DNA of 64,000 nucleotides, from the NCBI GenBank assembly GCA_963665285.1, contig OY762266.1:3008001-3072000 (forward strand), written 5' to 3'. Position numbers and translations under genes: made by a program. Of the stretch, positions 2,631-4,640 are shown one piece after another. Source of the stretch: Candidatus Poribacteria bacterium (GTDB lineage Bacteria; Poribacteria; WGA-4E; PCPOR2b). Below the pieces are notes generated by a model, which was not told the DNA's origin, did not search any database, and was given only the letters and a program-made list of their open reading frames with translations. How positions within the stretch are numbered: the stretch's first letter is position 1; each line of letters begins with the position of its first letter.

Positions 2631-4640
2631 CTATTCAGCGACTCGCCACAGCCCCGAACCCAATCGCTTCCCCAGAACGACACCGATAAATGTATAGGAA
2701 AAACCGTCGACCAAGATCCGTGCTAGGATATACCAATCCGCGTAGAAAAGACGGTAGAGTGTCATGCTCAGTTGGAAATCAACGTAAACAGTGAACGCAT
2801 CGCATAAGCCGAAGATTAACGCCAAGGTCAACAGGCTTGCACCTCCAATTGCGCCGGAATCCAAAGTAATTTTCCGCGCTATCTGGAAACCGGCTTCAAG
2901 CAGCAGTACAGCGGTGACAGCGTGAAGCAGTATGGTGGGCGTAAGTAGCCCCAAGGTGACGCCTCCCAGCAGAAGTCGAACTGCGGTAACGAGGGTAATC
3001 ACCCCAAATTTTGGGATGAGGATCAGCAGCGACGTCAGCAACGCGTAGTATAGCATCTCGTTGATGAGTCCCGTGATCAGAGATGAAATAGGACCGAGTA
3101 ACGCAGAGATCAGGTTAGTCAACAGGGTTGATGGGACGTTAACGGCAATAAATATCGTTGTGCCAAACAGAGAAATAAGGATCAACTGCTTAGTCGAAAA
3201 ACGGATAAATAGTTGTTGGTGAAAACAGAGTAGCAATCCAATTCCGAGTCCTGTTACAATGGTCACAAGGCTGGTAACAAGCAGCGCGTGGAGATTGGGT
3301 GTCACAATCAACAGCGGTCGCGTGGCGCGGAGAGCGGTTGCGTCGCTTCCCCAAATTTTCACTTCAATTACACGCTCATATTGCCCCGCCCCAGTAAAAT
3401 CTTGATGCTGTTGGGCAAGCGGATTGAGAAAGATGGGCAGAGGGACAGATGTGGTACTTTTTCCTGTCAAACTGACAAACGCAAGGCTGCGATTCGTGCC
3501 GGCGTTGACCGCGTCCGGGGGAGATAGGAAGGGAACAGGCTCCCTGCTCTCTGTATCGCGATTCATTGATCCGACAATCGCGTGAACCGTTTCCTGCCCT
3601 TGATTATGGATGTGAACCGTTTGATAAGCGACAGGCTCAAATTCATCCGTCGGGCTGGTTTTTGCGCCGAACCATTTACCGAGCCCTCCCAAGAGTGGAC
3701 GTGGAGAGGAGATCGTGTCCCGTCGCTGTCGAGGATCGGACATACCGCCTGGGCCTGTCGGCATGGTAATATTCTCAATCCGAAGTTGCCCCGCAATCTC
3801 ATCAAGGGAAGCAGAACGCAGTGGCGTCGTCACACTCCGTTCCCACCGATCTCCCGACTCATTTTCAAAGAACACGTGACCGCGGATCTGTGTGTCTTTG
3901 GGGAGTGGCTCATCCGGGATTTTTAAGGTCAATTGGCTGTACCAAACCTCTGATTCGACGGTGAATCTTCCTGATGAGTGGTAGGATAAAACCTCCTCTC
4001 CACGTCCACTAGAATTCGGAACCTCCTCCTTCACCTCGCTATCCCATACTGGGTTATGTGGTAACACTTGAAATGATGCCGGAACCTGAAGCACCACTTG
4101 AAAGGTAACAGGTACCTCCAAGCCACTTCGGACCAGCACGGTTGCAGTCATTTCGACACCCTGTAAGACCAACGATGCCTTCTGAGCGGACGCTGCCGGT
4201 GATACGTTCAAGTCTGTACCAACGCTTGTATCAACGGTCTTGTTCACCTCGATTGTGCCGTAAGGGATCGCAATCTCGATCGTCCCGCGCGGATCGGTTT
4301 GGGGTGCCTGCACCGTTTGAACGATGGATTCACCGTTCTGATACATCACTTCAAACCGATAAGTCCGCCCCTTTTCCCACCGAAAGTAAAGGGATTCGGT
4401 GCTGCGTGCATACCCGCCGAGGTCGAGTTGAGCGACTAAGGCGCCTTCTGGATCGAGGACGGTGACTTTTTGGACGCTCTCTCGAACCGCAGCGTCAAAT
4501 TCAACTTTTGCACCGAGCGGAAAAAAGGTGACAGCCCATGAAATCGGGGCTTGTTCACTGCTTTTCGGCGCACAAGCGAGATAAAAGAGAAAGAAAAATA
4601 GGGATAAGAGATGTGAAACGTAAGAGATATGAGGGTTCAA
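2631..4640 (-). CDS. Membrane protein: lipoprotein-like N-terminus, ~430-aa ectodomain, C-terminal multi-TM ECF S-component-like domain
   Basis: FFFLFYLA-C lipobox-like start (TTG); C-terminal ~220 aa with about 6-7 hydrophobic helices, starting FSTKQLILISLF and containing IPKFGVITL. Confidence 0.6.
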   Translation of the reverse strand: MNPHISYVSHLLSLFFFLFYLACAPKSSEQAPISWAVTFFPLGAKVEFDAAVRESVQKVTVLDPEGALVAQLDLGGYARSTESLYFRWEKGRTYRFEVMYQNGESIVQTVQAPQTDPRGTIEIAIPYGTIEVNKTVDTSVGTDLNVSPAASAQKASLVLQGVEMTATVLVRSGLEVPVTFQVVLQVPASFQVLPHNPVWDSEVKEEVPNSSGRGEEVLSYHSSGRFTVESEVWYSQLTLKIPDEPLPKDTQIRGHVFFENESGDRWERSVTTPLRSASLDEIAGQLRIENITMPTGPGGMSDPRQRRDTISSPRPLLGGLGKWFGAKTSPTDEFEPVAYQTVHIHNQGQETVHAIVGSMNRDTESREPVPFLSPPDAVNAGTNRSLAFVSLTGKSTTSVPLPIFLNPLAQQHQDFTGAGQYERVIEVKIWGSDATALRATRPLLIVTPNLHALLVTSLVTIVTGLGIGLLLCFHQQLFIRFSTKQLILISLFGTTIFIAVNVPSTLLTNLISALLGPISSLITGLINEMLYYALLTSLLILIPKFGVITLVTAVRLLLGGVTLGLLTPTILLHAVTAVLLLEAGFQIARKITLDSGAIGGASLLTLALIFGLCDAFTVYVDFQLSMTLYRLFYADWYILARILVDGFSYTFIGVVLGKRLGSGLWRVAE

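Follow-up and report, generated by a model that had tools for sequence, protein, structure and literature searches.

A protein of 669 residues, encoded on the minus strand of the 64,000-nucleotide stretch of Candidatus Poribacteria DNA analysed here (the window; positions 3,008,001 to 3,072,000 of contig OY762266.1), is, with a probability of about 0.6, the substrate-carrying (S) subunit of an ECF importer of the group I type with a motor of its own. This importer would bring its substrate, likely cobalamin or a related corrinoid, through the inner membrane. It represents a widespread, unannotated variant of the ECF importer, in which the S-component has an additional transmembrane helix (TM0) and an Ig-like ectodomain, is served by its own motor and a propeller partner, and belongs to the B12 regulon.

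The accepted view is that ECF S-components are small, free and tumbling in the membrane, and that ECF systems have no outward binding protein. An S-component naturally pinned by a large ectodomain makes it possible to test directly which share of the protein has to topple and whether it must be released from the motor. The system is also a candidate for B12 import across the inner membrane in a dominant sponge symbiont, which uses B12 but does not make it, and in common gut bacteria, among which competition for corrinoids matters. The tethered design was not found in the literature searched; nor was a description of the family found in the full texts searched, mostly open papers; the supplements of comparative-genomics papers may list such genes.

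Table 1. Features of the three-gene unit and domains of the S-component protein (window positions; aa, residues of the protein).
Feature	Positions	Strand	Basis
Sigma-70-type promoter, TTGACA-17-TATAAT with TG extension	6464..6492	-	12/12 consensus match, consensus only
Cobalamin riboswitch aptamer, RF00174	6227..6423	-	112 bits vs gathering 31.5
Intrinsic terminator, 13-pair stem and T run	6104..6132	-	between aptamer and first gene
Secreted YncE/BtuG-like beta-propeller, dockerin-like tail, 426 aa	4755..6035	-	profile matches
Predicted ectodomain-fused ECF S-component, 669 aa, TTG start	2631..4640	-	ORF, relatives and predicted fold
Signal peptide ending in lipobox-like YLA-C24, aa 1-24	4569..4640	-	sequence
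D1, small beta-sandwich, aa 33-113, optional spacer	4302..4544	-	AlphaFold2 model; in 64/110 divergent sequences
D2, beta-sandwich, aa 117-279, cohesin/pilin/YcnI-like fold	3804..4292	-	structure matches; in 100/110
D3, membrane-proximal Ig-like beta-sandwich, aa 281-447	3300..3800	-	structure matches; in 110/110
TM0, extra N-out helix, aa 450-472	3225..3293	-	AlphaFold2 model; 4M5C and 5X3X_M alignments
Predicted six-helix S-component core, aa 480-669	2631..3203	-	5EDL Z 13.4, rmsd 2.9, 172 aligned
Exported WD40/PQQ-like beta-propeller, 573 aa	753..2474	-	conserved partner in two phyla

Predicted architecture of the S-component protein

The open reading frame is a real gene. When 7993 candidates were scored, 245 proved to be relatives of its product at E<=1e-3. 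The product matches no model in Pfam or NCBIfam, and gave nothing significant in sequence searches of the PDB, where a cohesin appeared at E 0.06. The AlphaFold2 model of all 669 residues (pLDDT 89, pTM 0.82), built from a 131-row alignment, consists of a signal helix, three beta-sandwiches, TM0, a short loop and six further helices, in that order. It is all-beta between residues 33 and 447, and helical from residue 450. A first-pass annotation of this DNA had described a lipobox-like N-terminus, a beta-rich soluble region and six or seven transmembrane helices. The soluble region is borne out by the all-beta part of the model, and the cysteine of the lipobox-like signal, Cys24, is found in 105/105 close relatives whose N-terminus reaches that far. 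The predicted number of helices is seven, TM0 plus the six-helix core, and they start before FSTKQLILISLF, where the annotation had placed their beginning.

The N-terminus, ...FFFLFYLA-C24, was recognized as lipobox-like by a regular expression, the tyrosine at position -3 being non-canonical. Among divergent forms of the protein, the lipobox-like cysteine occurs in 22/64 sequences of the long type but only in 4/46 of the short type. The lipid anchor thus appears to be lineage-specific and double anchoring, which had been suggested earlier, optional: it is likely for this protein but is not a trait of the family.

The membrane-proximal sandwich D3 is the best-conserved part of the ectodomain, with P294, G299, P336, N346, P402, G419 and Y421 kept at >=90%. 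Its structural matches are 7LR3 (Z 11.6) and the Ig domains of GH2 proteins (Z 10-11); those of D2 are led by 7ME6 (Z 11.3), 5XCB (Z 11.3) and 2VO8 (Z 11.2). When the whole model was used in Foldseek, only multi-Ig proteins were retrieved, at TM 0.12-0.18. In Poribacteria, the downstream propeller has an N-terminal domain to which D1 bears a weak similarity (best E 1e-4). Strict co-variation of these two domains was considered and rejected, as it fails in genome G050 and at loci L066/L045.

TM0 and the core accompany D3 in each of 110 aligned divergent sequences, which were selected for a length >480 aa. The ectodomain is joined to the core by TM0 and a basic cytoplasmic loop of 10-13 residues. 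In the same 110 sequences, the number of Lys and Arg residues per loop is 3.5, 1.0, 3.1 and 2.9 on the inner side and 0.3, 0.1 and 1.1 on the outer side, in agreement with the positive-inside rule for a protein having its ectodomain outward and its C-terminus in the cytoplasm. The outer loops of the core are short, of fixed length and nearly uncharged.

The model was compared with 48,161 PDB representatives. The best match was 5EDL, followed in the membrane part by 5KBW (Z 12.1), 4M5C (which we take to be NikM; Z 11.3), 4HZU_S (11.2), 3P5N (10.6), 5X3X_M (10.2) and 4HUQ_S (9.8). All seven alignments to the membrane part among the top 50 structural matches are to S-components, and no other helical protein is found there. 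The search itself warns that, for helical bundles, a Z of about 13 does not settle the matter alone; the assignment is based on the uniformity of the matches and on the gene context, and not on Z alone. The S-component fold predicted for the core, with both its ends cytoplasmic, is supported by this comparison together with the loop charges, as the first-pass annotation had proposed for the C-terminal domain.

Sequence links to known S-components are weak. PF09819 was detected in 2/24 family members, below its cut-off (best E 0.003, range 0.003-0.1), and PF09605 in 1/24. Among ten other unfused relatives, nine have no S-component match in Pfam or NCBIfam, the exception being P0255 (E 0.007). 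The ESM Atlas returned 'hypothetical' clusters only, with PF09819 as a low-share lead. Residues E582, R630, W636, Y637 and Y649 of the core are near-invariant. The small-xxx-small pair of helix 1, S490/T494, whose positions were assigned by analogy and with no null control, has small residues in 104/110 sequences and a strict AxxxA motif in 28/110.

The best core match, 5EDL, is YkoE, the S-component of the group I thiamine system YkoEDC (PF09819). YkoE likewise deviates from the AxxxA motif, and YkoEDC resembles the present system in its fused double ATPase, its own T component and its riboswitch control (PMC5037267, excerpt). However, YkoE is without TM0, ectodomain and propeller partner, is controlled by a thiamine riboswitch and shares only 15% identity with the protein studied here, which falls below the PF09819 cut-off.

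The ATP motor and the spread of the family

The genome has a single EcfT, preceded by a fused EcfAA', at G000:C1:5929223-5931782, which is 2.9 Mb from the S gene; the module passes the cut-offs of TIGR04520 and TIGR04521. EcfT was found beside the S gene in 0/80 Poribacteria-type loci (the best 80 of 327 genome loci). In gut relatives the gene order is S-ecfAA'-ecfT-propeller. Among loci with enough flank, ecfAA' comes straight after the S gene in 73/75, with ecfT next in 60/61 and the propeller in 54/55; these loci are the best 80 of 320 metagenome loci obtained with a non-Poribacteria query and form only 7 clusters at 90%. They are presumably from Negativicutes, judged from Acidaminococcaceae among the cluster names and from their TonB genes. 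In addition, protein P0260, from a cluster with a member named SAR324, is the S-component protein fused to two ABC ATPase domains (EcfAA').

The S gene is present in 57 of 61 sampled genomes of the phylum, and EcfT in all 57, although these genomes, being kin, are not independent. In the remaining four genomes, neither the special EcfT nor the propeller is present. An HMM made from seven gut-operon EcfTs gave 158-177 bits for 18 Poribacteria EcfTs, compared with 31 and 49 bits for two EcfTs from genomes without the S gene. The EcfTs of the two groups form one subfamily with a conserved C-terminal tail. No member of the other S-component families PF12822, PF01891, PF02632 or PF09819 was found in this genome, and a weak genome match of the S-domain HMM proved to be a CvpA protein.

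The gut operons, the EcfAA' fusion, the shared EcfT subfamily, the one-to-one co-occurrence and the lack of these four other S families in this genome suggest that the module is dedicated to this S-component though unlinked to it here. That the protein partners with an ECF module is highly probable. Judged from gene order and co-occurrence, the system would be a group I-type ECF importer that forms one operon in gut relatives and is split but one-to-one in Poribacteria. The first-pass annotation had considered a shared module encoded elsewhere in the genome. The distant location is correct for this genome; the sharing probably is not, and where the annotation had recommended looking for ecfA and ecfT, next to homologs in other genomes, both were found.

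Some other features of the motor loci were seen. A gene for a B12-binding radical SAM/DUF4070 protein lies directly upstream of ecfAA'-ecfT (L002:7187-9196 = G000:C1:5927186-5929195). It precedes ecfAA' in 10/14 relatives' regions, four of them with a tandem duplicate, and ecfAA' is elsewhere in the genome in the other 4/14. A gene pair downstream of the module (L002:14227-18405) presumably encodes Hen1-like methyltransferase and Pnkp-like RNA repair proteins, as recognized from sequence. In one gut locus (L156:6198-6800), ecfAA' stops after about 70 codons and is followed by unrelated sequence, which is likely an insertion or an assembly join.

The membrane domain retrieves at least 368 clusters at 50% identity. 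Among the best 150, which were inspected, most proteins have 490-700 residues and an ectodomain, and the short members resemble fragments. Close relatives are named Candidatus Poribacteria, as are 78 of the best 80 genome loci. Names obtained from 20 clusters include Acidaminococcaceae, Acholeplasmataceae, Oleimmundimicrobium, Archaeoglobus, SAR324, a Firmicutes MAG and Dethiosulfatarculus, and all of these are annotated as hypothetical except the ATPase fusion. No relatives were found on plasmids or viral contigs.

Regulation, propeller partners and substrate

The S gene is the second of a three-gene unit, between an upstream YncE/BtuG-like propeller gene and a second, downstream propeller gene. 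The promoter in front of the unit is the sole 12/12 site among five listed, and the cobalamin riboswitch is the only RF00174 match in the genome (150/264 candidates scored). The strong terminator probably serves the riboswitch as its expression platform. Of the Poribacteria-type loci (the best 80 of 327 genome loci), 73 have the riboswitch, 76 the upstream propeller and 77 the downstream propeller. RNA contigs from four runs of two studies cover parts of the leader and all three genes, though they may derive from more than one transcript or from DNA.

Genes for an ECF sigma factor, an anti-sigma factor and an HtrA protease are situated upstream on the same strand (6549-9029); they are linked to the unit in 15/80 loci only. 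About 900 bases to the left of the window, at G000:C1:3007037-3007104, the last bases of the downstream propeller gene (its 3' end) recur over a length of 68 with 88% identity. This copy lies on the same strand, 1.7 kb from that gene, and is likely the scar of a local rearrangement. At locus L067 (6884-7816), the upstream propeller gene has shrunk to a dockerin-bearing remnant, while the riboswitch, the S gene and the second propeller are intact.

The profile of the upstream propeller matches the PDB entries 8PTF, 8PTD and 8BLW, each called 'YncE family protein', with E values of 6e-15 to 2e-14. We assume that 8BLW and 8PTF are structures of BtuG, the B12-binding propeller of the Bacteroides surface. 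Against YncE and surface-layer entries overall the E values range from 6e-15 to 2e-8, and the archaeal surface-layer protein 1L0Q scores higher. BtuG2 is a seven-blade corrinoid-binding propeller (10.1101/2022.11.17.516869, excerpt). In contrast to BtuG, the upstream propeller is without a lipobox, has a variable dockerin or sorting tail instead, and is not accompanied by an adjacent BtuB. On these profile matches, it is a candidate outer corrinoid-capture protein.

The tail of this propeller (window 4755-4920; relatives at L018, L022 and L045) is interchangeable, being dockerin-like, FlgD/T9SS-like or a short motif of the GKLATSWG type. These tails look like a lineage-wide set of surface-sorting tags in Poribacteria. 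Docking of the propeller on D2 by a cohesin-dockerin interaction was rejected, because relatives may carry another tail in place of the dockerin, dozens of dockerin-like tails occur in the genome, and D2 is kept in gut loci that have no upstream propeller gene.

The downstream propeller, which is of the eight-blade type, accompanies the S gene in both groups, in 77/80 Poribacteria-type and 54/55 gut loci. Its model (pLDDT 86) is most similar to 5NNZ (Z 34), and also to BamB and Rv3035-FecB. Prediction of a complex between S residues 120-669 and propeller residues 125-573 gave a score of 0.40, versus 0.00 for the best of three controls, and is classed as weak (the mark is reached by 116/157 solved and 2/215 mismatched pairs, and at scores <=0.60 by 18/157 solved pairs and both mismatches). 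At least 41% of the contacts are common to the prediction runs, and the pLDDT of the partner is at least 72. The earlier suggestion that the ectodomain is a docking platform for the propellers thus gains some weak support, from this score and from the co-occurrence in two phyla.

The cobalamin riboswitch, which the first-pass annotation had missed, points to the substrate. A corrinoid is the most economical choice and is quite probably what the system imports. A cobalamin riboswitch is also present at 6/7 of the gut loci first tested. None was detected at three further gut loci (L139, L126 and L085), one of which has 9 kb of unrelated upstream genes. In genome G061, the S gene is the last of a run that stands behind a riboswitch and includes cbiP, cobT, cobU, cobS/cbiB, cbiA, btuD/F/C-like genes, cobA and cbiZ. 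The genome studied here encodes four proteins with B12-binding domains, a corrinoid methyltransferase system and B12 radical SAM enzymes; CobS was found neither in it nor in any of the 38 genomes of its order (0/38). It also has no BtuC-type permease, its FecCD-like matches being of the Zn/Mn type only; such a permease is missing in 23/38 genomes of the order. Another S-component, that of ECF-CbrT of Lactobacillus delbrueckii (6FNP), serves cobalamin and cobinamide together with an ECF module (PMC5997447, excerpt), and the same substrate would be handled here. However, CbrT is a six-helix protein that shares a group II module with seven others. It was not matched in the PDB sequence searches, and 6FNP is absent from the best 50 structural matches, although a resemblance may rank below these.

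A FecCD/BtuC-type permease is co-present in G061 and in 15/38 genomes of the order, so that in some genomes the S-component system may be redundant or may carry something else. It is conceivable, although unlikely, that a corrinoid precursor, a lower ligand or another metal-tetrapyrrole, and not intact cobalamin, is imported beside BtuCDF. Such a substrate would be consistent with the btuCDF-like genes and remodelling enzymes of G061, with the chelatase neighbours of the gut loci, with neighbouring TonB receptors, for which models of heme and of B12 receptors give similar scores, and with the three gut loci that are missing the riboswitch. A host without CobS, however, would be unable to finish a precursor along the known route, and nevertheless it keeps the system under the only B12 riboswitch of its genome.

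It is quite unlikely that the same ECF complex imports free cobalt or nickel, as do CbiMNQO and NikMNQO, with the ectodomain and propeller acting as helpers of the CbiN or NikL/NikK type. The group I metal S-components NikM and CbiM have an extra N-out helix before the six-helix core and belong to the B12 regulon, and the seven-helix topology predicted here aligns with 4M5C (186 aligned residues) as well as with CbiM (5X3X_M). NikM coordinates its metal through a free N-terminal Met-His. The N-terminus of these metal S-components is short, free and metal-binding, whereas here it is separated from TM0 by a 430-residue beta-sandwich ectodomain, and among the His, Cys and Met residues of the core, which might bind cobalt, none is conserved (His is found at 512 in 36% and Met at 626 in 38%). 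This lack of an evident ligand for cobalt also counts against a corrinoid as the substrate. The extra N-terminal helix of NikM is crucial for metal coordination (PMC5037267, excerpt). The protein does not match PF01891, and where CobS is missing, imported cobalt could not end up in B12 along the known route. Nevertheless, cobalt transporters too are found under B12 riboswitches (PMC13119186, excerpt), CbiM needs an accessory outward-facing part, CbiN (PMC7689651, excerpt), and several gut loci adjoin cobaltochelatase genes, with CobN/ChlI/ChlD upstream. Phascolarctobacterium is predicted to make B12 fully (PMC7568257, excerpt), which, together with the cobaltochelatase neighbours, would suit cobalt uptake.

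Most gut loci have an MsbA-like ABC transporter gene after the propeller gene (L084:14659-16416, L098:14684-18007), followed by exbB/exbD/tonB-like genes, some of them behind another cobalamin riboswitch. In several gut loci, the gene immediately before the S gene encodes a BtuD/FecE-like ATPase and has no permease gene beside it (L098:8271-9119, L100:8265-9104). In the Poribacteria genome, a cluster at L184:755-5593 (G000:C1:5110754-5115592) encodes an MtaA/CmuA-type methyltransferase, a corrinoid protein and an AcsV-like reactivase, which is an O/N-demethylase-type system.

A possible mechanism of import

Import of a corrinoid would begin at low B12, when transcription passes the terminator. 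Outside, the corrinoid would be captured by the BtuG-like propeller, while the second propeller would rest on the ectodomain above the binding pocket and help loading. The six-helix core would then dock on its own EcfT/EcfAA' and topple about the basic cytoplasmic loop between TM0 and the first core helix, H1, with TM0 and the ectodomain staying upright. This combination of a hinge and a scaffold seems to us an even bet. The first-pass annotation was half right in assuming that a large ectodomain would constrain toppling: only TM0 would be pinned, and the core, being joined through TM0 and a cytoplasmic loop, would stay free.

Uncharged outer surfaces ease the toppling of S-components (PMC5037267, excerpt), and their basic cytoplasmic base is water-exposed in both orientations (PMC10368641, excerpt). 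The family keeps both the uncharged outer loops and the basic base, suggesting that the core can topple about the TM0-H1 loop. Because TM0 aligns in the model with the packed extra helix of NikM, its unpacking from the core is an assumption.

Very unlikely, in our opinion, is an arrangement without toppling. Here the complex would be fixed and EcfT would open the pocket inward by a small rotation, or else the S fold would be a scaffold or sensor, as in MreD and the 5TMR-LYT sensor kinases. These proteins, which are not transporters, also have an S fold with an extra N-out helix, H0 (PMC11109136, excerpt); the occurrence of the ectodomain and TM0 in 110/110 divergent sequences and the conserved C-terminal tail of EcfT would agree with such a role. 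However, MreD and the kinases have bulky residues at the AxxxA positions, where H1 of the present family keeps small ones, and they carry output domains in the cytoplasm or pair with MreC, and are without an ECF module. The protein described here has no cytoplasmic output domain, is strictly coupled to EcfAA'T, and has uncharged outer loops.

The hinge-and-scaffold scheme can be extended to a broader picture, which is tentative and rather doubtful as a whole: an ECF importer that has regained an outward capture arm. The Ig stack would hold the propeller as a built-in binding protein, while the tethered core topples on its hinge. The result would be a four-subunit B12 uptake system of bacterial phyla and some archaea that has been missed by annotation. 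In Poribacteria, the lipid anchor and the spacer domain may span the periplasm, collecting the corrinoid from the outer membrane.
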